Positions 1,081 through 17,309 of a stretch of DNA of 41,805 nucleotides are shown piece by piece. Positions within the stretch are counted from its first letter, which is position 1. Each line of letters begins with the position of its first letter. Made by a program: the position numbers and the translations under genes. The DNA comes from a virus (lineage: Duplodnaviria > Caudoviricetes): the IMG/VR virus record IMGVR_UViG_3300011434_000011, positions 1 through 41,805 of that record, one strand, 5' to 3'. The notes under the pieces were generated by a model. That model worked only from the letters and a program-made list of their open reading frames with translations, was not told where the DNA came from and made no database searches.

Positions 1081-1202
1081 AAACAATGATCGTCGCCCTA
1101 CTCGTCCTGCTGCTCGCAACGCTAGCGGCCGCCTGGGCCACGCGCCCCCTGCCCATCGGCGATGGCATCGCCGTAACCGACACCGTTTATGTCACACGTT
1201 GA
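1077..1202 (+). CDS. small secreted/membrane peptide (41 aa)
   Basis: AAGGAG RBS, ATGA overlap; MKTMIVALLVLLLATLAAAWA signal-peptide-like N-terminus. Confidence 0.65.
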   Translation: MKTMIVALLVLLLATLAAAWATRPLPIGDGIAVTDTVYVTR

Positions 1203-1341
1203 CATTCTCGGGTGGGCGTGGAACGCTGTCACGCAAACCGACTGGCGCCCCTGGGTGCTTAACACCACCACCTTGCCGCCCCTTAGCATAACCCAGCCGC
1301 TTGACATCGGTATTGCTTGGAGAGGAGTTGAACCATCATGA
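1189..1341 (+). CDS. micro-ORF family member (50 aa)
   Basis: MSHVDILGWAWNAVTQTDWRPWVLNTTTLPPLSITQPLDIGIAWRGVEPS; overlaps both neighbours; xAxxA and DIG motifs. Confidence 0.6.
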   Translation: MSHVDILGWAWNAVTQTDWRPWVLNTTTLPPLSITQPLDIGIAWRGVEPS

Positions 1342-1607
1342 CCCGCGATGCTCTCGAGGAATCCCTTGCCCGCGTCAACGCAACGCGCGGGTACAGCAAC
1401 CGGTACCGCCTGGTCCAGCGCTTCGATCGCGCCCCGGGTAAGCCCCGCGCGTTGGCGCTCGTCAAGGCCATCGGCCGCGCCGACAGCAACATCACCGGGT
1501 GGAAAACCCCGGCTGAGATGGCCGCGTTTCTCGCCGGCTTCATCGAGGGCTTCGAGACCTGCGAGAGGCACGTCCGCCGAACGATGGGAGGCCTACGATG
1601 TTCATAG
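1338..1607 (+). CDS. hypothetical protein
   Basis: GAGGAG RBS, ATGA overlap, GC-rich third codon positions. Confidence 0.75.
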   Translation: MTRDALEESLARVNATRGYSNRYRLVQRFDRAPGKPRALALVKAIGRADSNITGWKTPAEMAAFLAGFIEGFETCERHVRRTMGGLRCS

Positions 1608-1735
1608 ACTACCTCTGCGCCGCCGCTTGGGCCTTTGCTGGCGTCGTCTACATGTTCCAGGACAAGCTTGACCTCATGCTGGGCGCGTTCGCCCTGTCCA
1701 CATTCTGGACCTACCTCGGGAGGCTAGCGGAATGA
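1598..1735 (+). CDS. small two-helix membrane protein (45 aa)
   Basis: GGAGG RBS; MFIDYLCAAAWAFAGVVYMFQDKLDLMLGAFALSTFWTYLGRLAE; stop overlaps next ATG. Confidence 0.65.
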   Translation: MFIDYLCAAAWAFAGVVYMFQDKLDLMLGAFALSTFWTYLGRLAE

Positions 1736-2007
1736 CGGCCATGCACGTCCCGCGCATCCCGCGCGCTGAGCAAGAGACCGTGATCCAAGCTGACTCCGGG
1801 GGGGTTATCGCCTACACCACCGACCCTGCCGTGTGGCGCGCCCTCAAGCGCCGCGCGAAGGCCCTGGGTGGCTCCATCGAGACCACCCATCTCGAGGAGG
1901 GGAATCCCCACAACCGCGAAGTCGGGGGGCAAGTCCGCCTCCCCGCGTTCGCCTGGAGCACCGCGCGCTTTGGCCTGCGCTCCCGCCCGCCGAAGGTGGC
2001 GGCCTGA
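1732..2007 (+). CDS. hypothetical phage protein (EQETVI...YT.D motif)
   Basis: GGGAGG RBS, ATGA overlap; the motif recurs in small phage proteins of unknown function. Confidence 0.7.
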   Translation: MTAMHVPRIPRAEQETVIQADSGGVIAYTTDPAVWRALKRRAKALGGSIETTHLEEGNPHNREVGGQVRLPAFAWSTARFGLRSRPPKVAA

Positions 2008-2117
2008 TGCCGCCCGAGTCCGGCTACCACTTCCCCGGGAACGCCTCCGGCGCCGTCCACGGCGGCCCGCGGAGCACCTGCTCAGTTTGCCCACCCACTG
2101 CAAGAAAGGACCCAGCC

Positions 2118-2339
2118 ATGCCGTCCATCCGCCCCTTCGAGGACCGTCCCGTCCTTGGCTCTGACACCGCCGCCCTGCGGGCAGCCCTTGTGCAGGCGAC
2201 GCTGGCCCAAGCCGACGCCAAGGCCCTCGAGCTACGCACCGGCGCCGCCCATATAGCTGCGCAGAACGCCCTCGGCTCAGCCAACCGCCTCTACGACAAG
2301 GCCTACACCGCCCTGCTCGAGGCCATGAGCCGCTCATGA
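2118..2339 (+). CDS. hypothetical Ala-rich helical protein (alternative start 2007)
   Basis: AAAGGA RBS before ATG 2118; coiled-coil-like composition. Confidence 0.65.
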   Translation: MPSIRPFEDRPVLGSDTAALRAALVQATLAQADAKALELRTGAAHIAAQNALGSANRLYDKAYTALLEAMSRS

Positions 2340-2470
2340 TCACGGACCACGCGCACTACGCATATGGGTTGTACGACATGCTTTGGCAGCCCCACTTCCG
2401 CGAGCCGCGGCCGGCCATGGGCGTGACTCTCGGCCAACCCCTGCACTGGGAGGACCTCTACGATGTCTGA
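2336..2470 (+). CDS. micro-ORF family member (44 aa)
   Basis: MITDHAHYAYGLYDMLWQPHFREPRPAMGVTLGQPLHWEDLYDV; ATGA overlap; HAHYA motif. Confidence 0.6.
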   Translation: MITDHAHYAYGLYDMLWQPHFREPRPAMGVTLGQPLHWEDLYDV

Positions 2471-2531
2471 TCCCCTCGAGCTCGCCATCCTCGACCTGCT
2501 CGCCGTCCTGCGGCGCCGGGCGCCCAAATGA
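2463..2531 (+). CDS. 22-aa amphipathic peptide
   Basis: GGAGG RBS; MSDPLELAILDLLAVLRRRAPK; GC-rich third codon positions. Confidence 0.45.
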   Translation: MSDPLELAILDLLAVLRRRAPK

Positions 2532-2630
2532 CCCGGAACCCCGCGGCACGGGCGGCTTGCCCCCAGCGCTACGAGCCGATCCCGCGGTACGGCCGCTGGT
2601 GGCTCTGCCGGCTGGTCCCCATCATACCCA

Positions 2631-2661
2631 TAAACAAAAACGCCCCTTTGTTTTAGGGGCG
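2631..2661 (-). terminator. intrinsic terminator oriented on the minus strand
   Basis: Perfect 7-bp stem CGCCCCT/AGGGGCG (2641-2661) followed on the - strand by TTTTTGTTTA. Confidence 0.55.
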
Positions 2662-2844
2662 GAACCGAGGGGGCGGATTGATTGTATTCAGCCACAGACT
2701 TACATCTGTTTGCCTTCCGGTGCAGGGGGCAGGTGGCTCACAGTCGGCCGTGAGCCCCCGCTTATCGGGGTACATAGATGTAACCCCGGAAACTGAGAAA
2801 AGTTCCCAGGAACCATTCACCCGGCGCCGGGTTGGAGAGATGCC

Positions 2845-3222
2845 ATGGACATAGCCTTGCTGAGAGACCTGGAGCGCATCGTCCGAATGCCGTACGTGAG
2901 AGACCGCCAGGCGGCGCTCCGTGCCTTGGCCCACCCGGACATCGTCTTGGCGTGCCTCGAGGAGCAGCAAACGGAGGCGGTGGCGGCGCGCGTCGACCTC
3001 TCCGGCGTCACCATGGCGTCGGTCAGCGCTGCCCTGCGGGAACTCGGCCCCGGCCTACACCGGGTCTGGCACATCCAGGAAAAGCTGGGCCTGCCGGTTG
3101 GCAAGGGCCACGGCTCCAACGCCTGGTCCTCGAAGAACGCCGTGATCCGCACTCTCCTGCGCCTCCGCAAGCTCGGCCTCGTGAAGCGCGATCCTGAGGG
3201 CGGCGGATGGAGCGTCGTTTGA
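2845..3222 (+). CDS. putative winged-helix DNA-binding protein
   Basis: C-terminal HRVWHIQEKLGL...SKNAVIRTLLRLRKLGLVKRD..GGWSV is a wHTH-like pattern; GGAGAG RBS. Confidence 0.6.
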   Translation: MDIALLRDLERIVRMPYVRDRQAALRALAHPDIVLACLEEQQTEAVAARVDLSGVTMASVSAALRELGPGLHRVWHIQEKLGLPVGKGHGSNAWSSKNAVIRTLLRLRKLGLVKRDPEGGGWSVV

Positions 3223-3371
3223 TGCGTTTCCGCACCAGGGAGCACGCGCGCCGGGCCTGCGGTGGCGCCGTGCCGCGCTTTCCCTGCCCTCGGCACGGCA
3301 GGGATTGGCAGGTGGCCCTCGGCCGCGCCCCCATATGGCACTTCACCCTCGGCCTGGAGGATGTCCCTTGA
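3222..3371 (+). CDS. micro-ORF family member (49 aa)
   Basis: MRFRTREHARRACGGAVPRFPCPRHGRDWQVALGRAPIWHFTLGLEDVP; TGATG overlap; HARRA motif. Confidence 0.6.
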   Translation: MRFRTREHARRACGGAVPRFPCPRHGRDWQVALGRAPIWHFTLGLEDVP

Positions 3372-3763
3372 AGAAGCTCCTACACGTTTCCGCGCTCAGA
3401 GCCACCGACACCAACAGGTGGCCCGACTACAACGCACGCTGGGACTTCAATCCGCGCGGTGCTGATTGGCGGGTCCTCGGCCTTTGCCTCGCCCTCGCCC
3501 TGTGCATACCCCCCGGAGCCATGGCAGCCCCGTCAGTTGCCCTCACCGAAACGTCCTTGACGATCGTCGCCGAGGGCCCCTTCGTCCTCTGGTCCGTCGA
3601 GAAGGATATGCCCGTCGTGGCGTCAGCGCTGTGGGCGCGGGAGTTGCCCCGCCCGCCCGACGGCATCTACCTGGTCCTGACCTTCGACACCGAGCGCAAG
3701 ATCCACGTGACACCGTTTGTGGTCGGCATGCCGCCGGCCTGGAGGCAATGGACGCATGTATAG
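3368..3763 (+). CDS. membrane-anchored/exported protein with micro-ORF-like N-terminus
   Basis: GGAGG RBS, TTGA overlap; MKKLLHVSALRA..., hydrophobic VLGLCLALALCI segment, then a beta-rich domain. Confidence 0.6.
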   Translation: MKKLLHVSALRATDTNRWPDYNARWDFNPRGADWRVLGLCLALALCIPPGAMAAPSVALTETSLTIVAEGPFVLWSVEKDMPVVASALWARELPRPPDGIYLVLTFDTERKIHVTPFVVGMPPAWRQWTHV

Positions 3764-3813
3764 GCCTTGCTATGCCCAAGCGGCCCGCGGAGCCGGGAAC
3801 TTTGCCAATTACT

Positions 3814-3838
3814 GGCCCCCGGTGGGGTGCTTTTTATT
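3814..3838 (+). terminator. putative intrinsic terminator
   Basis: GC-rich imperfect stem GCCCCC-GGT-GGGGTGC followed by TTTTTATT. Confidence 0.5.
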
Positions 3839-3868
3839 GCTGGACTGCGATTGGGGCATTGCGCTCGC

Positions 3869-3958
3869 ATGGCCCGCTTCGTAGCTGCCTGCGCCGTCCT
3901 CGGCGCCATCATCTACGCCCTTTGGTGGACCCTTGAGTGGAGGTATTGGCACCCATGA
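3869..3958 (+). CDS. small membrane peptide (29 aa)
   Basis: MARFVAACAVLGAIIYALWWTLEWRYWHP; stop overlaps next ATG. Confidence 0.5.
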   Translation: MARFVAACAVLGAIIYALWWTLEWRYWHP

Positions 3959-4113
3959 TGATGATCCACTGGAAACACGTGCAGCTTGCCGCAGAGACGG
4001 ATATGTACGACTACAGGCCCGCAGCGATCGAGCGCCGGGCCGCTTGGCTGCCAATCGGCGAGTGCGCCCCGGACTGCGTTTCCCTCACAACAATCCCCGT
4101 GGAGCTCCGCTGA
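3955..4113 (+). CDS. micro-ORF family member (52 aa)
   Basis: GGAGG RBS; MMMIHWKHVQLAAETDMYDYRPAAIERRAAWLPIGECAPDCVSLTTIPVELR; HVQLA and PIG motifs; TGATG overlap. Confidence 0.6.
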   Translation: MMMIHWKHVQLAAETDMYDYRPAAIERRAAWLPIGECAPDCVSLTTIPVELR

Positions 4114-4892
4114 TGTACCTCTTGGCCCATTGGGAAAAGCCCTCGGTCTTTACCCTCAGCGACTGCGACGGCGCCGTCATCGGCCACCACGGCTGGCGCG
4201 ACGCGGACATTCGCCGGTACGTGCTCTCGCGCCCCGACTGGCTGCTCTTCGACTACTTCAACGTGTGGCAAATGCCCCTCTTGAAGTGGCTCGACGGCAC
4301 GAACCCCTGGTTCGAGTTCCTCGGCAACGGCGAAGGCAGGCACCCGTACTACATGACGCCCGACGGGCGCCCGGTGTGCGAGCGTTGGAAGGGCCGGCCC
4401 CTGGTGCCGTGGGCAAACATCGACCCGCAGAAAGCTGCGGATTGTGTCATCGATGCGAAGGAGCGGCGGAACCCGAGGGGCCATGGCGGCATCTTGCTGG
4501 ACTGCTGGTTCCCCCGCCTCGAGGCGTGGATGTCGCCAGACATCCTGACCATCCCACCCGACGTCGAGGCGCAGCATGCTGCGAACGCCTTTGCCTTCCT
4601 GCGCCTGCTCGAGGCCGCGGCTGTCCCTGTCCTCACGAACGGCGACCGGAACTCTGGCCGGCAGCCGGTGTACCTAGAGGACACCGGGCAGCGGATCCCG
4701 TGGGACGAGGCCCTGGCGGTGTGGCGCGGGTTGTCAACACTCTCGGTCAACGCCGACGTTCCATACAACGTGGCACTGGCCCTGCAGGCCTGGGGCACGG
4801 GTAAGTGGCTTGCCTTTACTGACGGCGATGGCACCGCCGCGCCAGGCGCCTACGCCCAGGCCTTGGCGTACCGGAGGGCGTATGGTGTCTGA
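4113..4892 (+). CDS. putative glycoside-hydrolase-like TIM-barrel protein
   Basis: ATG 4113 after GGAG; LFDYFN, HGGILLD, VLTNG and VYLED strands spaced like the GxxLD/NG/E motifs of GH114/GHL-type barrels; Trp-rich. Confidence 0.45.
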   Translation: MYLLAHWEKPSVFTLSDCDGAVIGHHGWRDADIRRYVLSRPDWLLFDYFNVWQMPLLKWLDGTNPWFEFLGNGEGRHPYYMTPDGRPVCERWKGRPLVPWANIDPQKAADCVIDAKERRNPRGHGGILLDCWFPRLEAWMSPDILTIPPDVEAQHAANAFAFLRLLEAAAVPVLTNGDRNSGRQPVYLEDTGQRIPWDEALAVWRGLSTLSVNADVPYNVALALQAWGTGKWLAFTDGDGTAAPGAYAQALAYRRAYGV

Positions 4893-5052
4893 GATCAAGC
4901 CCCACGCGCGTGCCGCCCACCGCGGGGCCGGGTTCTGGCGGCGCGATCTACGTCCGACGCACGAGGGCAAGAAGGACGGCGGGCAGTTTTATTTCGACTC
5001 GATTGACATGTGGTCTTGGCATTGGACCGCTGAGGTGTTTGATGGTACTTAG
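4882..5052 (+). CDS. micro-ORF family member (56 aa), paralogue of next ORF
   Basis: GGAGGG RBS; MVSEIKPHARAAHRGAGFWRRDLRPTHEGKKDGGQFYFDSIDMWSWHWTAEVFDGT. Confidence 0.7.
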   Translation: MVSEIKPHARAAHRGAGFWRRDLRPTHEGKKDGGQFYFDSIDMWSWHWTAEVFDGT

Positions 5053-5230
5053 GCTCGACGCGCAAATCCTCTCTACTGCCCGAGAAGCGCTCTACGGCTA
5101 CACTTCTTGGTGGCGCTTAGACGTTAGGCCCAGGCACCGCGGTAGGCTTGAGGCCGACGATTATTCCTTTGACCCAATCAGTATGGGCTCCATGCACTGG
5201 CACGCTGAGACGTTCGGTTCCCAGCCCTAG
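5042..5230 (+). CDS. micro-ORF family member (62 aa), paralogue of previous ORF
   Basis: GAGG RBS; MVLRLDAQILSTAREALYGYTSWWRLDVRPRHRGRLEADDYSFDPISMGSMHWHAETFGSQP; ungapped alignment to the 4882..5052 product. Confidence 0.7.
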   Translation: MVLRLDAQILSTAREALYGYTSWWRLDVRPRHRGRLEADDYSFDPISMGSMHWHAETFGSQP

Positions 5231-5240
5231 AGGAGACCTC

Positions 5241-6350
5241 ATGGCAACTACGACCCCAACCCCAGAGCAGCGCGCCCAATTCCCCGCGTGGGAAGCCAAG
5301 TGGCGCGCGAACGGCCTCAACACCAAGCCCATGGACGACGCCGACAAGGCGGCCATGCGCTCGGCGCTTGCTGGCATCTACGCCCACATCGCCAAGCAGC
5401 CGCCCCCGCCTGAGGTGATCTTCGTCGCCTCGATGCGGGAGTTGCTGATCGAGGCGCCGGTGCTCCTCGGCCTCAACTACCTCAAGAAAACCCCAGACGC
5501 CGTCAAGGAGATCTGCCCCGGCGTGGACCTCGCGGCCGGCGCGGCTCTGGCACGCAAGGCCCTGTGGGCGAAGGCCCTCGGGGAGCCGGCTCCGCGGACC
5601 CCGAAGGCCATGACTAACATGATGGCCCTCTACCAGGAGATTCACCGCCTGTCGCGAAACCTGTGGGACGGCGGGAACCTGTGGAGCGGCTGGCCCTGCC
5701 ACCTCTCCTTCTACCGGGGCGTCGTCGGCGTGAACGACGAGGACACGACGGGCTGGCCCTTCTACGAGGAAGCCGCGGTTCACGGCGGCCCCCGCATCAT
5801 GGCCCCCGAGTTCGCCATGGTCTGCGACCGGCCCCAGCACATCCACGTCGATAGCGGCGACCGGCTGCACTTCGTCGGCGGGTCCGCCATCCGGTGGCGC
5901 GATGGGTTCGAGTTGTTCCGGTGGCACGGCATTCCTGTCCCCGCCCGGTTGGTCTGCCAGCCCGAGACCATCACCCTGCAGGAGATCAACGACGAGAGGA
6001 ACGCAGAGATCCGCCGCGCGATGCTCTCGCTCTACGGCATGGACCGGTACCTGCACGACACCGGGGCGGTGCCGCTGACGGGGGGAACCGATGATTGGGG
6101 TGCGCTGTACGAGATCAAGCACCCGAACGGCCGCCGGTCGCTGCTCGTCAAGGTCGTGAATAGCTCCCCGGAGCCGGACGGGACCTTCAAGGACTACTAC
6201 CTGCGCGTCCACCCCGAGTTGCGCCCCCTCCAGCGCCGCGGGAACCGCGTGACGGTAACCGGCGAGCCGCAGGCCCTGACCGCCCGGAACGCCGTGGCGT
6301 CCACGTTCGGCAAGCGGGGTGAGCATTACGCCCCGGAATTGGAGTCGTAG
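5241..6350 (+). CDS. DUF6745-domain protein
   Basis: GAGGAG RBS; CDRP..IH.D..DRLH...GSAIRWRDGFELFRWHGIPVP, ERNAEIRR, VVNSSPEPDGTFKDYYLRV..., ARNAVASTFG. Confidence 0.75.
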   Translation: MATTTPTPEQRAQFPAWEAKWRANGLNTKPMDDADKAAMRSALAGIYAHIAKQPPPPEVIFVASMRELLIEAPVLLGLNYLKKTPDAVKEICPGVDLAAGAALARKALWAKALGEPAPRTPKAMTNMMALYQEIHRLSRNLWDGGNLWSGWPCHLSFYRGVVGVNDEDTTGWPFYEEAAVHGGPRIMAPEFAMVCDRPQHIHVDSGDRLHFVGGSAIRWRDGFELFRWHGIPVPARLVCQPETITLQEINDERNAEIRRAMLSLYGMDRYLHDTGAVPLTGGTDDWGALYEIKHPNGRRSLLVKVVNSSPEPDGTFKDYYLRVHPELRPLQRRGNRVTVTGEPQALTARNAVASTFGKRGEHYAPELES

Positions 6351-6410
6351 ATGTTCGAAGCTGTCGCCCAGCGAAACTCGCTGAGCGGACCCCCCCACAA
6401 GGAGAATCAC

Positions 6411-6758
6411 ATGGACAAGATCAAGGGCCAGGTCCGCCAGGGCGACGTCCTGCTGGACCCCACCTCCACCCCCCTCGCGAACGCCGTCGAGGTCCCGCGG
6501 GATAACGGCCGCGTCGTGCTCGCCTACGGCGAGGTCACGGGCCACGCGCACGCCATCGCTGACGAAGGCGTCGCGCTGCTCGAGGACCCGTCGACCGGCG
6601 AGCGCCAGCTGGTTGCCTTCAGCGACACCAAGGTCCGGCACGAGGAGCACTCGGCTCTCCCGGTCCTCGGAAGCCTGGCGACCGAGGCGCGGCGGAACGT
6701 CATCCTCCAGTCCGAGTGGTCGGACGAGGAAGAGGCGGGCTTCGGCGTCGCCGACTGA
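6411..6758 (+). CDS. His-rich partner of DUF6745 protein (RQGDV...GEVTGHAH...HEEH)
   Basis: AAGGAG RBS; motif set typical of the small gene that neighbours DUF6745 genes. Confidence 0.75.
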   Translation: MDKIKGQVRQGDVLLDPTSTPLANAVEVPRDNGRVVLAYGEVTGHAHAIADEGVALLEDPSTGERQLVAFSDTKVRHEEHSALPVLGSLATEARRNVILQSEWSDEEEAGFGVAD

Positions 6759-6760
6759 CG

Positions 6761-7033
6761 ATGTTCTACCGATCCGGCGGCTGGTACTACTGTGAGGCGT
6801 GCAAGCCGCCGGATCCTCTAGCCGTTCGCCTCACCGATCTGGGGGTGCAGCAAGCGCCGGTCTTCTGCGCGGGCTGCACCTCCCTTCTACCTGCCCGCCT
6901 CCACCGGCTCGCGGACCTGCGCGCCGCGGTGTTCGCGCCGGCCGCATGGGCCCAGGTCGTCCGCATGTACGGCCTCGAGCGAGACCCCCCGGAGCAGGTG
7001 TCGCCCCCAACCTTGGCGTGGGACGATGAATAG
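6761..7033 (+). CDS. hypothetical zinc-finger protein
   Basis: CEAC...CAGC pairs; starts 2 nt after the previous stop. Confidence 0.6.
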   Translation: MFYRSGGWYYCEACKPPDPLAVRLTDLGVQQAPVFCAGCTSLLPARLHRLADLRAAVFAPAAWAQVVRMYGLERDPPEQVSPPTLAWDDE

Positions 7034-7178
7034 CCCGGCCTACTGGAGCATCGACGCGCTGCGCGGCACTGGCCCGCTCCGGCTTAGTCCCACAGGTGCC
7101 GACTGCCAAACCCTCCCGGGGTTCTGGCTCCAAACCTCTAGGGGGAACTATCTTGTCGCCATCTCCTCGGACCTGTGA
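7026..7178 (+). CDS. probable micro-ORF family member (50 aa)
   Basis: MNSPAYWSIDALRGTGPLRLSPTGADCQTLPGFWLQTSRGNYLVAISSDL; overlaps neighbours; only the relaxed motif (WSIDA). Confidence 0.45.
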   Translation: MNSPAYWSIDALRGTGPLRLSPTGADCQTLPGFWLQTSRGNYLVAISSDL

Positions 7179-7287: not shown

Positions 7288-8054
7288 GCGTCGTTCCCCT
7301 CTATGCCTCCCTCCGCACGAAGCCGCCCGCGTGGACCATCTTCCCGCTGGCGCGCGAGAGGACCATCACGATCCTGGCCGCGGAGCCGGGAGCAGGAAAG
7401 ACAACGTTGCTACTATGGGCTACAGTCGCGGCTGCTCAGGGGAAGGCCATGCTCGCTTCTGCCCAGACCCATACCCCTGCGCGCCCGTTGCGCACGCTCT
7501 ACTTTGCTTTGGATGGGCCAGCATACGACTACCAATATCTCGTCAACCGCGTCTGCGCGGGGCAGGCGCTCGTGCCATCTCGTGGGACGCCTTTCCTCTT
7601 CTGCCACAAGCGGGTGGACGTACTCGTCCCCGGTGAGCTAGAAAAAGTCCTCGAGGCCGCGGAGAAAACAGAGCATGACCACGAGCCGGTCGACGTTGTG
7701 GTCTTCGATGCCATCCGCGCCATCCACACGGGGGACGAGAATGATAGCAGCCACATGTCCAAGGTGACGAAGCGGCTGCGGGACCTCGCCGAGAGCGGCC
7801 CGGCCATCATTCTCACGCACCACTTCGCCAAGCCCTCGAAGGACCCGAAGGCCCAGGTCCGGGGGCTGGGCGCCATGCGCGGATCGACCATCCTCGACAC
7901 CGACCTCGACATGCAGATTCATCTATCGCGCATCGATGACGCGCCCGAGACGTTCCGCCGGCTGGAGTGGGCGAAGGGCAGAGGCGCGGACGTGCCGCGC
8001 GTGATGGCCTTCACCATCCGCACCGACGCAGATGTTATCACGGTGACGCAATGA
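7284..8054 (+). CDS. RecA-fold AAA_25/RepA-type replicative helicase
   Basis: Walker A AAEPGAGKT, Walker B VVVFD, DEND, ILTHHFAK, RGST motifs. Confidence 0.85.
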   Translation: MSVVPLYASLRTKPPAWTIFPLARERTITILAAEPGAGKTTLLLWATVAAAQGKAMLASAQTHTPARPLRTLYFALDGPAYDYQYLVNRVCAGQALVPSRGTPFLFCHKRVDVLVPGELEKVLEAAEKTEHDHEPVDVVVFDAIRAIHTGDENDSSHMSKVTKRLRDLAESGPAIILTHHFAKPSKDPKAQVRGLGAMRGSTILDTDLDMQIHLSRIDDAPETFRRLEWAKGRGADVPRVMAFTIRTDADVITVTQ

Positions 8055-8188
8055 TAATGTTTCTCCGTGTCGATGGGGCTAGCTACGTTCCTAAGTGCTG
8101 GTACTACATGTATTACCGCGGGGGCTCGTTCAGCATACGCCGCCGGTGGCTCGGCGTTGGCTTTACCATCCAAGGGCTGAGGACATGA
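8051..8188 (+). CDS. micro-ORF family member (45 aa)
   Basis: MIMFLRVDGASYVPKCWYYMYYRGGSFSIRRRWLGVGFTIQGLRT; ATGA overlaps on both sides. Confidence 0.55.
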   Translation: MIMFLRVDGASYVPKCWYYMYYRGGSFSIRRRWLGVGFTIQGLRT

Positions 8189-8322
8189 AGCGCATCCGCC
8201 GTTGCCACCATTGGTGCGCTGCTACGGACGTCGCGGTCTTCGATGCCCCAAGTAGCGCCACGCCCTACTACATGATCGGCTTCAACCTCGGGTTTGATGC
8301 TCTTGTGGAACTCTACAGATGA
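8185..8322 (+). CDS. micro-ORF family member (45 aa)
   Basis: GAGGA RBS; MKRIRRCHHWCAATDVAVFDAPSSATPYYMIGFNLGFDALVELYR; ATGA overlaps on both sides. Confidence 0.55.
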   Translation: MKRIRRCHHWCAATDVAVFDAPSSATPYYMIGFNLGFDALVELYR

Positions 8323-8462
8323 CACTGTCACGCGTGCCATACAGGGCCTGGGACCGTTGGGCCTACCAGCCGAAGATATCTGCGCTCTTATCTGTGCGCT
8401 TGACTATCCCGCCGCTTGGCGCTACTCTTTGGAACATCGGCGGCAACGACTTTGATAATTAA
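8319..8462 (+). CDS. micro-ORF family member (47 aa)
   Basis: MTLSRVPYRAWDRWAYQPKISALLSVRLTIPPLGATLWNIGGNDFDN; ATGA overlap. Confidence 0.55.
   Translation: MTLSRVPYRAWDRWAYQPKISALLSVRLTIPPLGATLWNIGGNDFDN
8400..8428 (+). promoter_or_regulatory. putative sigma-70 promoter for the replication operon
   Basis: TTGACT-17 nt-TACTCT, upstream of the nuclease TTG at 8452. Confidence 0.5.
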
Positions 8463-10763: not shown

Positions 10764-11317
10764 TGGCCAATCCCTACGTCACTGACCCGCGCTTCCGCGC
10801 CCTGTACGACTCGCTGGGCTCGCGGACGCTGACCGTCCCGATGTCCGCGCGCACGACGCGTACGGGCGGCCGGACGTGGCAGGAAGCGTTCAGCATCACC
10901 AAGCTCGCGGTCGAGCGCCCGGGCGTCAAGAAGCCGGACATGGAGGGCGACGACACCTACAACGTGGCGCTGTCGCTGAAGATCAAGCCCGAATCGACGC
11001 AGGACGACGTCACGTCGCCGAACGTCAGCCGGGAGATCACACAGGACATGCGCTTCAACTTCCCGACGCTCCTGCGCGGGATCGAGAGCGGGAATGTGGC
11101 CGGCCAGGCGAAGATGACCGAGATGGCCGCGCGCACGTTCAAGAGCCTGGTCGTGGCCCTCGGCTTCGACCCCGATTTTGGCATGGACCCGGAGGCCTTC
11201 GTCGACGAGCACGGCCAGGACGCCATCGGCGCGACTGTCCTCGGTATCGTCTCGCAGGCCCAGAACAAGGAAGGCGAGCTCCAGGACGAGGTCCGCACCT
11301 TCTTCGTGGAGAGCTAG
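10760..11317 (+). CDS. probable single-stranded DNA-binding protein
   Basis: GAGGAG RBS; follows the Sak4-like gene, the usual SSB position; beta-rich with acidic/aromatic tail. Confidence 0.45.
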   Translation: MMANPYVTDPRFRALYDSLGSRTLTVPMSARTTRTGGRTWQEAFSITKLAVERPGVKKPDMEGDDTYNVALSLKIKPESTQDDVTSPNVSREITQDMRFNFPTLLRGIESGNVAGQAKMTEMAARTFKSLVVALGFDPDFGMDPEAFVDEHGQDAIGATVLGIVSQAQNKEGELQDEVRTFFVES

Positions 11318-11319
11318 CC

Positions 11320-11829
11320 ATGACCGCCGGCACCGATCAGTACTTCCCGAGCGCGGGCGACTCGGCAGCGCACGTGCCGAACGTCAGCGCGCGGGAGTTC
11401 CTGGGCCAGGGCGCCATCAGGATGGGTACCACCGGAGCCGTGCGGGATGCGCGCCAGGGGAAGGGGAGGTTTGACCTCCTCTTCCTCGGCTTCGCCATCG
11501 CGCTGCGGCGCCTCGCGGAGCACTGCGAGGCCGGGGCGATCAAGTACAGCGACCGGAATTGGGAGTACGGCCAGCCGCTCTCCTGGTTCCTTGACAGCGG
11601 AACGCGCCACGCCGCCAGCTGGGCGGCGGGCATGGGGGATGAGGACCATCTAAAGGCGGCGGCATGGAACTTCATGGCGGCACTCGAGACCCGGGAGCGG
11701 ATCAAAGAGGGGCTGCTGCCGGAGGCCCTCGACGACCTCGCGCTGCCGCTCGCTGCCGACGCGCAAGCCAGACATGGCGATGCGATGCCGCTGCCGAAGT
11801 GGGCGGGTCCCTATGTCGGCGACACCTAG
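11320..11829 (+). CDS. dATP/dGTP diphosphohydrolase domain protein (DUF5664-like)
   Basis: TGAVRD..GKGRFDLL, GAIKYSDRNWEYG, DS..RH, EDHL.AAAWN. Confidence 0.85.
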   Translation: MTAGTDQYFPSAGDSAAHVPNVSAREFLGQGAIRMGTTGAVRDARQGKGRFDLLFLGFAIALRRLAEHCEAGAIKYSDRNWEYGQPLSWFLDSGTRHAASWAAGMGDEDHLKAAAWNFMAALETRERIKEGLLPEALDDLALPLAADAQARHGDAMPLPKWAGPYVGDT

Positions 11830-12236
11830 ATAGCAACAGGGAGAGGGGGAGGCGGTGGTGGAGACGGAAAGCGGAGGATCCGCGGTGGCTGGCACGGCGG
11901 ATCCTCGTCCGCTACGGGCTCGAGCCCACCGCGTTCCTGGTTTCGACATTAGCTGGACCAGCGGCGTCGTGTTCTATATGCCGGGTGCCAATGTGGTTTC
12001 TGTCTCGGCGTCGCCGTTCTGGCGGACCCTGGCCGTTCTGGATTTCGGAGAACTGCTGGCGCCGGCTGACGGTTGACCACATCGATCCCTGGGGCCCGCG
12101 CGACAGCGTCGCGAACATCCGGCCCCTTTGCATGGCGTGCCAGGTCCACCGGGGTAAGGCGCGGCTCTCGGACGCTCAAGTGAGAGAGGTGGTGCTACGG
12201 GAATGGTCGAGGCTGTACGGCAGGCTTCCTTGGTAG
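11664..12236 (+). CDS. HNH endonuclease (start uncertain, 11664 or 11799)
   Basis: CSIC...LTVDHIDP...NIRPLCMAC; second Asn/His positions diverged (CQVHRG). Confidence 0.7.
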   Translation: MELHGGTRDPGADQRGAAAGGPRRPRAAARCRRASQTWRCDAAAEVGGSLCRRHLDSNRERGRRWWRRKAEDPRWLARRILVRYGLEPTAFLVSTLAGPAASCSICRVPMWFLSRRRRSGGPWPFWISENCWRRLTVDHIDPWGPRDSVANIRPLCMACQVHRGKARLSDAQVREVVLREWSRLYGRLPW

Positions 12237-12364
12237 CGCTCGAGGCGGCTCATTACTTCGTTATGAGAGAGGTCGACATGAAGGCCGACTCAATCAACAG
12301 CTACAACGGGCCACGCAACGACATTGGCGCGACACTCCGCGTCCGGGGCGAGGTTGATGGCTAG
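12230..12364 (+). CDS. probable micro-ORF family member (44 aa)
   Basis: TTG start; MVALEAAHYFVMREVDMKADSINSYNGPRNDIGATLRVRGEVDG; fills the gap exactly; DIGATL resembles PLGATL of 8319. Confidence 0.45.
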   Translation: MVALEAAHYFVMREVDMKADSINSYNGPRNDIGATLRVRGEVDG

Positions 12365-13454
12365 AGCCACGGGCGACCCCGGGGCGCCCATCATGGTCAT
12401 CGGCGAAGGCTTGGGCAAGGAGGAGATGCGGGACGGCATCCCCTTCGTGGGCCAGTCCGGCAAGATGCTCTGGGGGGTGTGTCACGAGGCCGGCTTCAGC
12501 CGCGCCGATTGCTTCGTCACGAACGTGAACCAGTCGGGCGCGTCGCTCAAGGCGGCGGACCTGGCCCTCGAGCGCCCCCGCCTGGAAGCGGAACTCCGGG
12601 CCTCGGGCGCACGCATCCTCTTCCTGATTGGGGGCATCTCGTTCAAGGCTGTCACGGGCGGCCTCGTGCTGCCAGACGGCAAGGTGAACGCCGGGGTCAC
12701 GGGGCTCCGGGGGTACCTCTTCCTGCCCTCGGACTTCGGCCCCACGTTCGTGCGGCGCCAGGTCCAGACCGGGACGTACAAAACCTCGAGGGCCGGGAAG
12801 TACACCAAGGGCGACCCCAAGTTCGCCATGAAGCGCCTCCCGGAGCCCCGGCCCCTGCCCCCCAACGTCGAGTGGATCATCCCGGCGATCCACCCGGCGA
12901 ACATCATGCGGCAGGAGTTCGAGACCCTGCCGGCCCTGCGGACGGACGCGGCGCGCGTGGGGCGGGCGCTCCGGGGCGAGCTCGCCGTGATCGACCCGGC
13001 GACGCTGCCGTTCCACGAGACGCCCGTCGCCCTCGCCGGCAAGGTCGTGGCGGTGGACATCGAGACGCCCGGCCGGGACTGCGACGACATCTGCCGCGTT
13101 GGGGCATCAGACGGGACGACGACGTGGTCGGACGAGTGGAATCCGACGTCTCGCGCAGCGATCGCGAACCTGTTCGCGGACGAGAGCTTAACGATTGTCA
13201 TCCACAACGCGGCCTTCGACCTGCCACGCCTCGAGCTCGCGGGCGTGCCGTGGCTCCGGGGGCGGCTGTGGGACTCGATGTACGCGGCGCAACTTCTTGC
13301 GCCTGCCCTCCTCAAGGGCCTGGGCAAGACCGCGACGATGCATCTGGACCTGCGGCCCTGGAAGCACGAGAACATCTCGCACCCGGCGCGGTACAACGCG
13401 ATGGATGCGTACGTGGAAGCGCGCTTGGCGCTCGAGCAGATGAGGTTGATGTGA
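12357..13454 (+). CDS. uracil-DNA glycosylase (family 4-like) fused to PolA 3'-5' exonuclease; N-terminal half of a split DNA polymerase
   Basis: MVIGEG.G.EE..G.PFVG.SG, TNV, IHPA (UDG); VAVDIET, HNAAFDL, RYNAMDA (Exo I-III); SPO1-polymerase-like architecture. Confidence 0.88.
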   Translation: MARATGDPGAPIMVIGEGLGKEEMRDGIPFVGQSGKMLWGVCHEAGFSRADCFVTNVNQSGASLKAADLALERPRLEAELRASGARILFLIGGISFKAVTGGLVLPDGKVNAGVTGLRGYLFLPSDFGPTFVRRQVQTGTYKTSRAGKYTKGDPKFAMKRLPEPRPLPPNVEWIIPAIHPANIMRQEFETLPALRTDAARVGRALRGELAVIDPATLPFHETPVALAGKVVAVDIETPGRDCDDICRVGASDGTTTWSDEWNPTSRAAIANLFADESLTIVIHNAAFDLPRLELAGVPWLRGRLWDSMYAAQLLAPALLKGLGKTATMHLDLRPWKHENISHPARYNAMDAYVEARLALEQMRLM

Positions 13455-13585
13455 GCATTATCGAACACGGAAGGGAAGCGCACCTGCCTGCGCGACAGTG
13501 GCGTAACAAGTACATTCCCATAGGTGCCGCCAGGGGCTCCGTTGTCCTTGGGCTCGCTTTCTCGACTTGGGACTCGCTTCAATGA
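13451..13585 (+). CDS. micro-ORF family member inside the split polymerase (44 aa)
   Basis: GTGA overlap, GAGG RBS; MSIIEHGREAHLPARQWRNKYIPIGAARGSVVLGLAFSTWDSLQ. Confidence 0.55.
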   Translation: MSIIEHGREAHLPARQWRNKYIPIGAARGSVVLGLAFSTWDSLQ

Positions 13586-13749
13586 CTGCCGTCGTCGCAG
13601 CCTGCGCGCCTGCCGAGCGCCTGCGCGGCGCGATGCCGTGGCCGGGCCTGGTGCGGATCGGTTCGTTCTCGAGCCCGGTGATCAGTATGCTGCACCGCAT
13701 CCCCGCAACCGGCGACTTCTTCTTCAGGGAATCCTGGGAGTCCGCATGA
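13582..13749 (+). CDS. micro-ORF family member inside the split polymerase (55 aa)
   Basis: ATGA overlaps on both sides; MTAVVAACAPAERLRGAMPWPGLVRIGSFSSPVISMLHRIPATGDFFFRESWESA. Confidence 0.5.
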   Translation: MTAVVAACAPAERLRGAMPWPGLVRIGSFSSPVISMLHRIPATGDFFFRESWESA

Positions 13750-14915
13750 TCCGCGTTTTCGAGACCATGATGGCCGCGCTGCCAACGCTGATCGAGGCCA
13801 CTCGACGCGGCATCCGCGTCGACCCGGTGTACGCTGAAAAGTGGCGGGGCGAGCTCCGTATGAAGCTCCAGGCCCTGCACGCGCAGTGGCCGTACCCCGA
13901 CGTGGATCCGGGCTCGTCGCGCCAGGTGGCGAACCTCCTCTACACTAGGCTGAACCTGCCCCCCAGCTTCACCGACAAGGGTGGGTACTCGGCCGACGCG
14001 AACGCGATCCGGGCTGCGATGGCGGCAGCCCCCCCGGAGCACATGGACGTGCTCCGCTTGCTCTTGGACATGCGGGAATCGCAGACGAGCCTTTCGACCT
14101 TCGCGGGTCTGACGGTATCGCGCGTCCACCCGCAGTTTCTGCCGCAGGACAAGGACGAGGACGAGGAGAAAGCGGGCGACAAGGGCCAGGGCGCAGGCAC
14201 CGGGCGCATCCAGCCCCGTCGTCCTAACACGGCACAACAGCCGGACGACGCCCGCTTTCTCTTTATCCCCGACGAGGGGATGGTCCTCGCGTACTTGGAC
14301 TGGCACTCCGCGGAGGGCCGGGTTGAGTGCGCGTTGTCGCATGACTCCGCGCTGCTGCTTGCCATCGAGGGCGACCTGCACTCGGTGCTTGAGCGGGAGA
14401 TGGGCATCGACCGCACGCGCGCGAAGAACGTGTACTACGGCACGGGCCGAGGCGCCGGCCCCAGGAAGCTGGTGAAGACGCTCCGGGGGAAGGGCTTCTA
14501 CACCACCGAGGCGGAGATGGTCCTGGCCCAGGCGAAGCTGAACACGGCCTTCCCGCAGTGGGCCCACTGGCGGGCTGCGGAGCACATGGCCGCGCGCTCG
14601 ACCCGGGTGATCACGAATCCGTTCGGCCGGCGGTGGCACATCCACCACCCCTCGGTGGCGCGTAAGGCCGTCGCGCGGATCGTGCAGTCGGCCGTGGCGG
14701 ACATGCTCTGGCGGGTCCTGGCGCAGTGGCCCAAGCCGGCCCAGCTGCTGACCCCCGTCCACGACGCGGTGCTGGCGCAGCTGCCGCACCCGGACGTGGC
14801 CCTGGAGCTCAAGGCCGTTATGGAGCAGGTATTTGACGAAATCGCCCCGGGGTTCCGCGTGCCCGTTAAGGTGGCCGTGGGCGCCCCCGGAGCCAGCTGG
14901 GGAGACCTCAAGTGA
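13746..14915 (+). CDS. polA: DNA polymerase family A, polymerase domain
   Basis: GIRVD, SSRQV..LLY..L.LP, TGR...PN, motif A LDWHSAEGRV, motif B RTRAKNVYYG, FGRR, VQSAVAD, motif C VHDA; GGGAG RBS. Confidence 0.9.
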   Translation: MIRVFETMMAALPTLIEATRRGIRVDPVYAEKWRGELRMKLQALHAQWPYPDVDPGSSRQVANLLYTRLNLPPSFTDKGGYSADANAIRAAMAAAPPEHMDVLRLLLDMRESQTSLSTFAGLTVSRVHPQFLPQDKDEDEEKAGDKGQGAGTGRIQPRRPNTAQQPDDARFLFIPDEGMVLAYLDWHSAEGRVECALSHDSALLLAIEGDLHSVLEREMGIDRTRAKNVYYGTGRGAGPRKLVKTLRGKGFYTTEAEMVLAQAKLNTAFPQWAHWRAAEHMAARSTRVITNPFGRRWHIHHPSVARKAVARIVQSAVADMLWRVLAQWPKPAQLLTPVHDAVLAQLPHPDVALELKAVMEQVFDEIAPGFRVPVKVAVGAPGASWGDLK

Positions 14916-15280
14916 TCATCGCTGCAGACGTTCTCGCGTTCGTGTTCGACGGCAAGGAGCTGATATGGCTGGACAAGGAGATCAAGCGCTGGCCAGCCGT
15001 GAGCGGGCCCCACGGGAAGGGGGAGCTGCCCACGGGCGGGTACACCATCCTGCCGGCCGTGCCGCTCTCTGGGATCCCGACGAACGATGCCTACCGGGAC
15101 AAGGCCGGGAATTGCTGGTTCGCTCCCATCCGCCCGCAGTTTAAGACGGAGCGGACGAGCCTCGGGATCCACCCGGACGGCAACGTGCCGGGGACCCTGG
15201 GGTGCATCGGGCTGACCCAAGACGACACGAAGGAAGTCATGGAACTTCTGCAGCTGCCGGGGGTGTTATTCGTCGTATGA
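14912..15280 (+). CDS. Tlde1/DUF2778-like L,D-transpeptidase-fold protein (candidate lysin)
   Basis: AVSG, LP.G.Y, RTSLGIHPDGNVPGTLGCIG (H...GC catalytic signature); GTGA overlap. Confidence 0.7.
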   Translation: MIIAADVLAFVFDGKELIWLDKEIKRWPAVSGPHGKGELPTGGYTILPAVPLSGIPTNDAYRDKAGNCWFAPIRPQFKTERTSLGIHPDGNVPGTLGCIGLTQDDTKEVMELLQLPGVLFVV

Positions 15281-15432
15281 CGGCCCATGAGATCTACATG
15301 CACGCCCGCTTGGCCGGCGCGAAGTGCTCCTGCCCAGCTTCGTTGGAGATCGCAGTGGCGTGGCCGGCGTTCACCGGGGGGAGTTACTTCTACGTGCGGC
15401 CCTTGGGGTTCACGGGGGAAGGGTTTGAATGA
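15277..15432 (+). CDS. micro-ORF family member (51 aa)
   Basis: MTAHEIYMHARLAGAKCSCPASLEIAVAWPAFTGGSYFYVRPLGFTGEGFE; ATGA overlaps. Confidence 0.6.
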   Translation: MTAHEIYMHARLAGAKCSCPASLEIAVAWPAFTGGSYFYVRPLGFTGEGFE

Positions 15433-15557
15433 GCACCACGATCTGCGCCGCGAACGCAATGCTTCCCGTTTACGTGCTCTTCGGCCTCCCGTCGAATTGG
15501 ATGATCATAGGGTGGCCAGAGTGGGGCGGCATGCTTCTGGAGCGCCATGGTGCCTAA
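15429..15557 (+). CDS. micro-ORF family member (42 aa)
   Basis: MSTTICAANAMLPVYVLFGLPSNWMIIGWPEWGGMLLERHGA; ATGA overlap. Confidence 0.55.
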   Translation: MSTTICAANAMLPVYVLFGLPSNWMIIGWPEWGGMLLERHGA

Positions 15558-15693
15558 AAACGATGCCACGTACCACGCGGGCTGGGCCTGCGTCTGGATT
15601 ACCCTTGGTTTCTGGGAGCCGGCCGCGGCTCGGCCGTACTTCGGCAGCGAGAACGGGATGGAGTTACTCCATTTCATGGATCCGGTGGAATGA
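15547..15693 (+). CDS. micro-ORF family member (48 aa)
   Basis: GGAG RBS; MVPKNDATYHAGWACVWITLGFWEPAAARPYFGSENGMELLHFMDPVE. Confidence 0.6.
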   Translation: MVPKNDATYHAGWACVWITLGFWEPAAARPYFGSENGMELLHFMDPVE

Positions 15694-15714
15694 TCCGCCC
15701 ACTCGGAAGGCTCG

Positions 15715-15948
15715 ATGGCTAACTCCCTTCGTTCCTGCATCCAGTGCGGAGCGAACACCTCGGAGCCCGTGTGCAGCCGGTGCACGAAGCCGTGGGGCGC
15801 GCTCGGGTACCGCCCCGAGCCGGCGCGGCTGGTCGGCGGGCGGAAGGCTAAGGAAGCGGCGCCTAAGGCGGGGCGCCGCAGGCGGGGGCGTCAGGAGCCG
15901 GAAGGGCGGCCGGCTCCGGCCCCTGCCAAGATGAAGGAGAAGCCATGA
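15715..15948 (+). CDS. zinc-finger protein with basic tail
   Basis: CIQC...CSRC; GGAAGG RBS; stop overlaps next ATG. Confidence 0.6.
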   Translation: MANSLRSCIQCGANTSEPVCSRCTKPWGALGYRPEPARLVGGRKAKEAAPKAGRRRRGRQEPEGRPAPAPAKMKEKP

Positions 15949-16481
15949 CCACCGACCCCGCGCGAGAGGCGGCGGAGAAGCGGTTACGCGACAAGTTCAA
16001 CCGCGAATATCGTAAGGCCAGCCCATTCAAGCTGGACCCCGCTGTGATTGCCGCCCGCATCGCCGCGGCCGAACACGACAGACCAGCCGGGGTACAAGTA
16101 GGTTCGGGGGTGTCCGGAATAGACGAAGCTGGCGAATCTATCGGCCAAGGCAGTGAACCCGCAACGCCAAGCGCGGATGCTACACCTCCGGCGCAAGCGG
16201 CCGAGCCCCCGAGCGATCTTCCGCCGTACCCGACCGCATCTCAGATGCGTGCTCGCGAGGAGCAGGTTAAGCAGGCCGTTCGCGAGGCCAAGCGCGAGGC
16301 GGTGGGGATTCTGCGCCTTGCGGCAACACGCTGGGGCACCGAGGAGCGATACATCGAGTGCTGGTGCAAGTGGAATCCCCTGGCCAAGCCGGAAGCGCAC
16401 ACACCCGTTTGCCAGAAGGTCACGCAGTACATCGCCGCCTTCGAGGCGGAGCAGGAGGCTAAGCGTGGGGAATCTGCGTAA
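15945..16481 (+). CDS. hypothetical protein
   Basis: AAGGAG RBS; low-complexity middle, CWC...H..C motif near the C-terminus. Confidence 0.65.
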   Translation: MTTDPAREAAEKRLRDKFNREYRKASPFKLDPAVIAARIAAAEHDRPAGVQVGSGVSGIDEAGESIGQGSEPATPSADATPPAQAAEPPSDLPPYPTASQMRAREEQVKQAVREAKREAVGILRLAATRWGTEERYIECWCKWNPLAKPEAHTPVCQKVTQYIAAFEAEQEAKRGESA

Positions 16482-16593
16482 GCTCCGCCGCGGGCTGTGG
16501 GGCGGGAAGCGGAGGACGCCGAAGCGCATCGTGAAACGGCGGCTGTTCCAGGCGCTGCTGGCGTTCATCAAGGAAAGGACGAAGAGTGCTTAA
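16465..16593 (+). CDS. highly basic peptide (42 aa)
   Basis: AGGAGG RBS, GTG; MGNLRKLRRGLWGGKRRTPKRIVKRRLFQALLAFIKERTKSA. Confidence 0.55.
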   Translation: MGNLRKLRRGLWGGKRRTPKRIVKRRLFQALLAFIKERTKSA

Positions 16594-17158
16594 GGACTAC
16601 GGCTTGCTGACCGCCGCCGACGCGGCCCTCCTGGCGACGCAGCTTTCGGATGTCTCCCGCCGGTTCCCGACGGGGACCCTGAACATCCTCGAGATCGGCA
16701 TCCACGAGGGCAAGACGGCGCGGGCCATTGCGCGCCACCTCGAGGGCCTCGAGCGCAGCTTCCAATTCTTTGGCGTCGACAACGGCAAGGACATGGACAT
16801 CCAGGCCCCGTTCGTCGGCGCGGTGCTGATCAACGGCGACAGCGCCGACGTCTACAACGCCGTGCCAAACACCCTGCACCTCGCGTTCATCGACGGATGT
16901 CACTGCATCAACCACGTCGCCTTGGACTACCTGCACTACGGCCGGAAGGTCGTGCAGGGCGGCATCCTCGTGTTCCACGACACGGGCGCCCTGATGCAGG
17001 GCAAGGACTACCAGCACGGGCCGGACATGCCGGACTTCTACGCGGCAACGCGCCGGGCCTTGGACCTCGTAGGCATCGCCGGGGACAAGCGGTGGCGCAT
17101 GGTCGCTGAGAGCGACGCGGAGGATTGGGGAGGATGCCGTGCGTATGAGCGCGTTTAG
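16586..17158 (+). CDS. class I SAM-dependent methyltransferase (Methyltransf_24-like)
   Basis: ILEIGIHEGKT, GVD, GDS, AFIDGCH, GGILVFHD. Confidence 0.85.
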   Translation: MLKDYGLLTAADAALLATQLSDVSRRFPTGTLNILEIGIHEGKTARAIARHLEGLERSFQFFGVDNGKDMDIQAPFVGAVLINGDSADVYNAVPNTLHLAFIDGCHCINHVALDYLHYGRKVVQGGILVFHDTGALMQGKDYQHGPDMPDFYAATRRALDLVGIAGDKRWRMVAESDAEDWGGCRAYERV

Positions 17159-17297
17159 GCGGGCTGTTGAGGCCTTGGCCGAGCAGGAGTTTGGACACTT
17201 TCGGTACCACGCTGGGAGTCCCGACAGGTACGACTCCGTCCCGTGGCCTACGCGCAAGCACGATCTGATGACGACAAGCGAAAGCCCCCCGGAGTAA
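17145..17297 (+). CDS. probable micro-ORF family member (50 aa), last gene of the + arm
   Basis: GGAGG RBS; MSAFRRAVEALAEQEFGHFRYHAGSPDRYDSVPWPTRKHDLMTTSESPPE; stop lies in the terminator loop. Confidence 0.5.
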   Translation: MSAFRRAVEALAEQEFGHFRYHAGSPDRYDSVPWPTRKHDLMTTSESPPE

Positions 17298-17309
17298 CCC
17301 GGGGGGCTT
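17282..17309. terminator. hairpin at the convergence of the two transcription arms
   Basis: Perfect 11-bp stem AAGCCCCCCGG-AGTAAC-CCGGGGGGCTT; short U tracts only. Confidence 0.7.

Follow-up and report, generated by a model that had tools for sequence, protein, structure and literature searches.

The virus record IMGVR_UViG_3300011434_000011 (Duplodnaviria; Caudoviricetes), analyzed here over its full length of 41,805 nucleotides (the window), is an entire phage record of 41.8 kb, which CheckV rates as 96% complete. It carries SU10-type capsid, portal, and adaptor genes, the capsid being 29-37% identical to those of named phages, and the phage is of the SU10/LUZ24 type. Its early and replication genes sit on the + arm, where the junctions between larger genes are occupied by 17 micro-open reading frames (micro-ORFs, or mini-genes, named here by their start positions) of 42-62 residues. 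A preliminary description made from the sequence alone had drawn attention to this set, and all 17 are present with the neighbor overlaps it reported. The late arm is free of them, as it had also stated: the annotated chain of the - arm contains no ORF shorter than 70 residues.

All 17 micro-ORFs are real, coding-like genes chained to their neighbors. A gene-chain program blind to any motif recovered 14 of 14 micro-ORFs within 3746-24912, assigning an upstream start to 12230. Adding five more coupled small ORFs (1077, 1598, 2528, 3756, and 16465) brings the set to 22, and codon usage favors the annotated frame over both other + frames in every one of them. The frame is the best of all six in 14 of the 22, the other eight being beaten only by the antisense mirror frame, and GC content at the third codon position exceeds that at the first and second in 22/22. 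The product of the chances that these frames stay open after base shuffling is 2e-11, a crude figure because the ORFs were chosen for openness. Each cassette begins on the preceding stop and ends within the ribosome site of the next gene; insertion at such a junction would therefore keep the operon translated.

Compositionally, the richness in W, Y, F, H, and P noted earlier is pronounced for Trp (47 versus 21 expected from the core genes) and Tyr (42 versus 28) and only mild for His (31 versus 24), Phe (45 versus 37.5), and Pro (71 versus 62), while Cys is also elevated (19 versus 8.6). The reported excess of A/T-ending codons at four-fold sites is an excess of T (88/476 versus 154/2101), with A-ending codons hardly raised (38/476 versus 126/2101). 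None of the 17 matched Pfam or PHROGs at E 0.01, nor did any of the four tried against NCBIfam. The AlphaFold model of mini-protein 4882 was uninformative, with a predicted local distance difference test score (pLDDT) of 40.

The signature of the set is an N-terminal motif. In a scan of residues 2-15, HxxxA starts at residues 5-10 in 8/17 micro-ORFs (2336..2470, 3222..3371, 3955..4113, 4882..5052, 8185..8322, 13451..13585, 15277..15432, and 15547..15693, all on the + strand), hence 8/22 small ORFs, and in 0/22 larger + arm genes. In a search over all pair motifs, an equally good one arose in 2/3000 shuffles of the 17 ORFs and 0/3000 of the 22. The ungapped N-terminal motif reaches z 4.7, or z 3.5 against shuffles confined to the N-terminus, and the Ala at +4 is encoded by all four Ala codons while the neighboring residues differ. 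Membership in the motif-bearing group rests on motif and codon usage for 2336 and 3955, and additionally on leave-one-out tests for 3222 (p 0.003 in the core set), 13451 (p 0.007), and 15277 (p 0.01). Two genes that the preliminary description overlooked carry xAxxA at the same place: 2528..2656 (+ strand), a likely member (leave-one-out p 0.003 with all 22 ORFs and 0.79 within the core set; a pair z of 3.9 to 3222), and 3756..3884 (+ strand), a possible one (repeat profile, see below, z 2.4; shuffle p 0.53).

The motif is thus genuine, and duplicated, diversified peptide genes inserted at junctions remain a fitting description of a motif-bearing core of 8-12 genes. Extension to all 17 as one HAxxA family goes beyond the data: leave-one-out hidden Markov models (HMMs) gave p<0.05 for 3/22 (Fisher 0.005), the 11 ORFs outside the core set gave Fisher 0.23, and the kinship of the ‘relaxed’ members is not demonstrated. 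Of 253 micro-ORF pairs, one aligns clearly. These paralogs, 4882..5052 and 5042..5230 (+ strand), are 43% identical (z 17.8) and share 24 identical columns, aromatic ones included, at odds with the statement that everything beyond the motif is unalignable. A later hydrophobic-Gly motif does not distinguish the set either, occurring after residue 16 in 14/17 micro-ORFs and in 15/22 larger genes, where the stretch scanned was longer. It is accordingly not specific as a cleavage site, which leaves the idea of leader-bearing substrates for a phage enzyme unsupported. Among middle and C-terminal segments nothing stands out (z 0.9); W-x4-6-P, considered as a second motif, is present in 8/17 at a shuffle p of 0.17. 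A likeness to the JAB/MPN N-terminal helix was set aside, as the acidic and Gly residues that should follow are absent.

Directly downstream of the 4882/5042 pair lies a two-gene module. The first gene (5241..6350, + strand) encodes a DUF6745 core protein of 369 residues (PF20530, E 1e-41, 143 bits against a cut-off of 27). The second, 60 nt further on (6411..6758, + strand; phrog_27831), encodes a small His-rich RQGD partner of 115 residues, which falls among unnamed viral clusters in the ESM Atlas; an xQGD gene adjoins most DUF6745 homologs (related loci and genomes bear L and G numbers below). The homologs comprise repeat-bearing forms (QV, SL, QL, NL, NI, SV, AV, and AT units) and repeat-less ones. 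The window protein is 36-46% identical to a subtype with a GGN[QL]W motif, in which 38 tracts yield 1089 units of [R/D/Y/W/E/S/G/H][A/D]AT. In a tree using all 50 rows, it falls within a clade of 18 rows from this subtype (support 97/94), on a long branch. Although it belongs to this AT-repeat clade, the window copy has no internal repeat: its best 40-residue identity at lag 4 is 0.08, and its SP-to-GGN spacing is 80 residues, compared with 78 in the repeat-less L146 and 97-441 in repeat-bearers. Structurally, its model (pLDDT 83) has a helical middle (residues 65-145) where relatives hold the repeat, with the lowest confidence at 138-147. Foldseek found nothing similar in the PDB; a further fold search gave a best Z of 5.7, on a helical part, which lies within background. 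A complex prediction of DUF6745 with 8185 gave no answer (score 0.00; controls not folded). In cyanobacterial genomes (L046-L125), tandem DUF6745 paralogs stand behind one RQGD gene and carry long, non-repetitive variable inserts.

The connection between module and mini-genes lies in the repeat. The repeat type to test was taken from the core protein, and 8 repeat types were tried on the mini-genes. Residues 11-26 of 8185 match the AT profile with z 6.3, the sole strong match among the 8 types. The score was reached in 0/20000 shuffles (p about 5e-5), exceeds those of all 11045 16-mers from larger window proteins, and has a counterpart in the DNA (12-nt profile p 0.005). This indicates with high probability that 8185 descends from the DUF6745 AT repeat. 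Residues 5-20 of 15547 represent a probable second relic (p 0.009 by shuffles, uncorrected; 0.003-0.01 against 16-mers), which is not significant after correction for 19 ORFs and shows no repeat signal at the DNA level. In the other 15/17 micro-ORFs, no AT-derived tetrad was detected. Both relic-bearing genes belong to the eight with HxxxA, and because both place the His in the [A/D] slot, the motif reads as xHAT-yAAT. Over the eight strict members, the register with H in the [A/D] slot gives p 0.014, compared with 0.28-1.0 for the other three. Through the motif, a common origin in the DUF6745 repeat appears reasonably likely for the remaining motif-bearing mini-genes as well.

Two other sources within the core protein were considered and not adopted. 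For the helix following the repeat (LxCAxxA[WY]xMW), an N-terminal profile gave Fisher 0.0014 and, compared with 57 controls, p 0.0012; when the position was left free, the value was 0.08. The block was chosen by eye, post hoc, and the peptides do not agree in register. This origin, which may still apply, would likewise tie the peptides to DUF6745. The likeness to window DUF6745 residues 98-119 was weak: the micro-ORF HMM places the window's own DUF6745 segment 7th, at 0.8 bits.

Genomic neighborhoods of related loci reveal what detached repeats look like. The best intermediate found, a ‘missing link,’ is L196 (G006, 8524-17491), which encodes a repeat-less DUF6745 (PF20530) of the same subtype and about ten mini-genes, pristine to worn, scattered among large genes with -4 and -7 overlaps at the junctions. 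Three of them contain xHAT, at H5, H8, and H10, and the mini-genes share an EVW[KR] tail containing the next gene's ribosome site. ‘HA’ occurs in the first 16 residues of 5/17 window peptides, 3/10 from L196, and 2/56 controls. Within the window's own clade, L192 (G007, 8037-15710) has a tandem pair of DUF6745 genes, both repeat-less, and after them a chain of more than 20 coupled genes of 34-72 residues without periodicity. The 20 tested (44-72 residues) resemble the window set in composition (W 0.039/0.047, P 0.077/0.070, lag-4 identity 0.087/0.071, L192/window), and the repeat tests nearly fail in them too (4/20); they show a W-x4/5-PG tendency (11/20, p 0.03). Beyond the AT type, the repeat-less L037, L039, and L040 carry QV mini-genes and L041 and L065 worn, non-periodic ones, while the repeat-bearing L043 and L045 have none. 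Stand-alone AT mini-genes were found at 0/34 repeat-bearing versus 2/6 repeat-less loci (p 0.02), a count that was edited by hand (L158 and L206 removed for frameshift-broken repeats, 2 unclear loci omitted, and L175 put back after automatic removal as a duplicate) and in which many loci show less than 10 kb. The window shares with the detached mini-gene loci (L039, L040, L175, L192, L196) a repeat-less core, an RQGD partner, and chained genes of 40-80 residues at overlapping junctions. It differs from them in carrying the AT type in a 42-kb SU10-type phage, in an N-terminal sign (HxxxA) rather than a tail, in a nearly vanished period, and in two genes inside a polymerase. What is new here is the near-total wear, the most advanced seen, together with the N-terminal sign and the presence of two mini-genes within a polymerase that relatives encode as one fused gene.

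Small genes in L031 (G001) bear on the same theme. Alongside a short repeat-less DUF6745 of another subtype, a 43-residue gene (5060-5191) still shows a tetrad's variable columns (p 0.003); at 1079-2009, four coupled genes of 52-59 residues form a cluster, and one of them has HxxxA. In the window itself, the 131-residue gene at 3368-3763 has a mini-gene-like stretch in its first 35 residues followed by a hydrophobic, signal-like segment, a possible fusion (p 0.04 against the L196 HMM).

Taken as a question of origin, the micro-ORF set is probably a heavily worn, detached library of the DUF6745 insert. Where the preliminary description envisaged one ancestral peptide gene, the ancestor was likely the DUF6745 variable insert rather than a stand-alone peptide gene, and the set is therefore likely part of an unnamed but recurrent module. 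Regarding function, the reading tentatively favored here, at somewhat less than an even chance, is that the motif-bearing mini-genes are worn, detached copies of this insert whose products supply the DUF6745-RQGD module with exchangeable recognition parts, probably for counter-defense. Such a system would start from a DUF6745-RQGD pair of the [var][A/D]AT-repeat clade whose core copy, as in this phage, is repeat-less. Other repeat-less clade members hold the repeat as separate genes of 30-80 residues in -4 junctions, pristine to worn, and HxxxA would be the remnant of the first two units. The N-terminal stretch alone would stay constrained, as a short helix seating on the core where relatives' repeat sits, and the W/Y/C-rich, aromatic remainder would drift and give each complex a different surface. 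Judging from the anatomy, and from the Sak4-like annealase and PD-(D/E)XK nuclease that the phage encodes, cassettes may have spread via start/stop junctions, two of them landing in the exonuclease/polymerase linker. By analogy only, with Tweety gp54 (below), repeat variation would tune how the module counters host defenses. We infer a constant core with its variable insert supplied in trans; the common docking helix and anti-defense role suggested earlier may apply in this form.

Several results weigh against this favored reading. The register test rises to p 0.06 once four registers are counted, and its signal comes from 8185 and 15547; taken by itself, the variable-slot test gives p 0.20. 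Within internal repeats, His is rare in the [A/D] slot (0.4%). Considered together, the 17 micro-ORFs have no significant period of 4 (z 1.3) and match no repeat profile (AT mean z -0.06). They are not recognized by HMMs of the L196 or L192 mini-genes (Fisher 0.69 and 0.24), comparison of their alignment with the clade profile by hhalign gave no link, and the micro-ORF HMM ranks the window's own DUF6745 segment no higher than 7th. The peptides are Pro/Gly-rich, unlike a helical repeat. Five repeat-less loci (L146, L156, L134, L142, and L148) have no evident mini-genes in the 9-18 kb seen. HxxxA is also present in 2/16 small genes of G001, the nearest relative, so that against genuine small genes from the clade the window's 8/22 stands out at only p 0.14. 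As for counter-defense, DUF6745 has no PADLOC or NCBIfam match, and fold searches with its model returned only other DUF6745 or unnamed viral proteins.

A first alternative, of modest probability, accepts the origin but decouples the products: the copies would no longer serve DUF6745, acting instead as coupling spacers or independent small inhibitors, with the motif as the least decayed part. Loss of the repeat in most mini-genes fits this, as does the 2.5-fold rise in T-ending codons, expected under relaxed codon selection. The open frame would be required regardless, to keep downstream genes coupled, and the enrichment in W, R, and G could be inherited from NGG-rich repeat slots (AGG 16 versus 4.1 expected, TGG 43 versus 22.8). 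Pure decay, however, does not readily explain why the +4 Ala is kept with all four codons amid differing neighbors, why the motif is held at residues 5-10 in 8 genes across 13 kb, or why 4882 and 5042 retain their 24 identical columns.

A second alternative, also well below an even chance, regards the peptides as an independent paralogous microprotein family docking on another phage or host protein, with 8185 alone a DUF6745 relic or a chance look-alike. The significance of the motif, including the leave-one-out result, and the negative set-level tests against DUF6745 repeats agree with this. Against it, both relic-bearing peptides hold the motif in the repeat register, and size, junction style, dispersal, and composition match the mini-genes of repeat-less relatives. 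Moreover, searches found no other family. A profile of 4882 and 5042 matched only itself among 5.8 billion proteins searched by words and 1.84 billion by HMMER, and a four-peptide profile retrieved only window proteins (3 hits from 6 candidates). In tblastn of 48 + arm ORFs against 35 related loci, no micro-ORF match was better than E 0.009. Orthologs of the mini-proteins were found in 0/5 relative genomes, and the ESM Atlas gave no usable match. A literature search returned no paper under the DUF6745 name and no description of such a mini-gene system, subscription papers for the most part and supplements wholly lying outside that search.

A third explanation, improbable for the set as a whole, is that these are ordinary, unrelated small early genes whose motif, apart from 4882/5042, is post hoc. 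Only one pair aligns clearly, the small genes of G001 are also W-rich and include HxxxA, and in relatives, unrelated accessory genes occupy these junctions. The search-corrected shuffles, the absence of the motif from the larger genes, and the 8185 relic argue otherwise. This explanation is probably true for some ‘relaxed’ members and unlikely for the core eight. It is very improbable that the motif is an enzyme leader, or a tag for sorting or processing comparable to the T4 internal proteins' capsid-targeting sequence: the fixed N-terminal position with variable bodies, as outlined for T-even internal proteins (PMC3012670), and a phage-encoded SprT-like protease speak for it, but the genes belong to the early/replication arm, a conserved cleavage site is not seen, the motif is much less strict than a tag of 10 residues, and the repeat register accounts for it.

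Comparison with known systems places the locus between several precedents. Internal-tract DUF6745 proteins (PF20530, phrog_31813; Mycobacterium phage prophiGD102-1 gp38, and the AT type in L135, L150, and L161) have the same core and RQGD neighbor, and 8185 keeps the repeat of the clade; in the window, in contrast, the repeat is gone from the core and found as separate genes, mostly worn beyond recognition. Mycobacteriophage Tweety gp54 offers an analogy: its 12-bp unit is described as having two residues that are fixed and two that vary (PMC2884959), and its repeat number is reported to tune escape from the prophage defense Phrann gp29/gp30 (PMC9262239); there, the repeat lies inside one protein and is tuned by copy number rather than by separate genes. 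T-even internal proteins, as presented in PMC3012670, are diverse small counter-defense proteins that share solely an N-terminal element and are packaged and processed. The window mini-genes resemble them in combining variable bodies with an N-terminal element, but nothing in the window points to packaging or processing. In T4-type phages, hyperplastic regions flanked by PeSL elements are described in which small variable genes are gained and lost as cassettes (PMC2839356, PMC4122927). Unlike these, the window junctions have no intergenic space or repeated promoter/stem-loop, and the genes overlap their neighbors. A diversity-generating retroelement or another DNA-level element was rejected as the source: in agreement with the preliminary description, no repeats flank the junctions within 1-17900 and no RVT_1 reverse transcriptase match exists, nor is there a template/variable repeat pair in that interval, and the base in excess is T, with A unchanged.

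Small orphan genes make up a large unexplained share of phage genomes, and this locus offers a traceable route from an in-protein repeat through detached pristine copies (L196, L175) to seemingly unrelated peptides (L192 and the window). In its most ambitious form, the reading would be that a repeat insert was turned into a genome-wide library of 10-20 exchangeable peptides that kept a docking helix and gained new aromatic-rich binding surfaces. This would amount to modular counter-defense without reverse transcriptase or recombinase, with cassettes spreading via start/stop overlaps and even splitting an essential polymerase. This full scenario is speculative and rather unlikely; if true, many orphan phage micro-genes would gain a traceable origin. 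If the peptides still dock on DUF6745, a modular counter-defense mechanism would be directly testable.

Two of the mini-genes lie inside a split polymerase. The nearest complete genomes, G001 and G002 (polymerase 44-46% identical), are syntenic in the core and encode a uracil-DNA glycosylase (UDG)-exonuclease-polymerase fusion of 1005 and 798 residues, respectively; they hold unrelated accessory genes at several of the window's mini-gene junctions. In the window, profile matches identify a UDG and 3'-5' exonuclease half of a family A polymerase (12357..13454, + strand) and, in the same frame, a polymerase half (13746..14915, + strand). The cut falls at the exonuclease/polymerase linker, which is four residues shorter than in G001 and G002. 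Between the halves lie 13451 and 13582..13749 (+ strand), the latter supported by overlaps and codon usage and of undemonstrated kinship, with -4 overlaps at all three junctions. Split polymerases occur in LUZ24-like phages. Because stand-alone polymerase halves of 377-393 residues, known as proteins, exist at 61-86% identity (relatives at 86, 80, and 61%), the split likely predates the window genome. Restoration of a fused polymerase by excising 294 nt was rejected as an argument: the two halves share a frame, but the three -4 overlaps make this unavoidable, and relatives have stand-alone halves. An identical 10-mer ribosome-site/start word stands at both ends of the first half (12350 and 13442), with a third exact copy at 30839, so that it may reflect codon bias.

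The remaining coupled mini-genes, all on the + strand and of undemonstrated kinship, are 1189..1341 (relaxed motif), 7026..7178, 8051..8188, and 15429..15557, each supported by codon usage, and 8319..8462 and 12230..12364, with lag-4 identity at p 0.01 and 0.02, respectively. The last mini-gene of the + arm is 17145..17297 (+ strand; p 0.03 against the core HMM).

A Logan contig of equal length, which may be from the source sample, has 0 differences from window 1-17900. Two other studies contributed short, near-identical pieces, two covering 13466-13739, with no informative joint; no RNA dataset was listed among the sequencing runs carrying window sequence. The sole difference in these pieces is T>C at position 13511 in mini-gene 13451 (Tyr21 to His), seen in one contig at depth 2.6 and possibly an error.

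Elsewhere, the primase-like (9249-10039) and HNH (11832-12236) genes have no obvious ATG/GTG start where expected, and the homologs in G001 and G002 are intact. The sole large intergenic gap of the + arm, 2657-2844, is A/T-richer and likely a promoter/terminator region. A methyltransferase and two glycosyltransferase-like genes (16586-17158, 28953-31804, and 36876-37388), two of them within the virion arm, may serve DNA, virion, or host-surface modification. On the - strand, a low-GC block (0.51-0.57) at 23305-24470 in the tail region is likely a swapped receptor-binding module.

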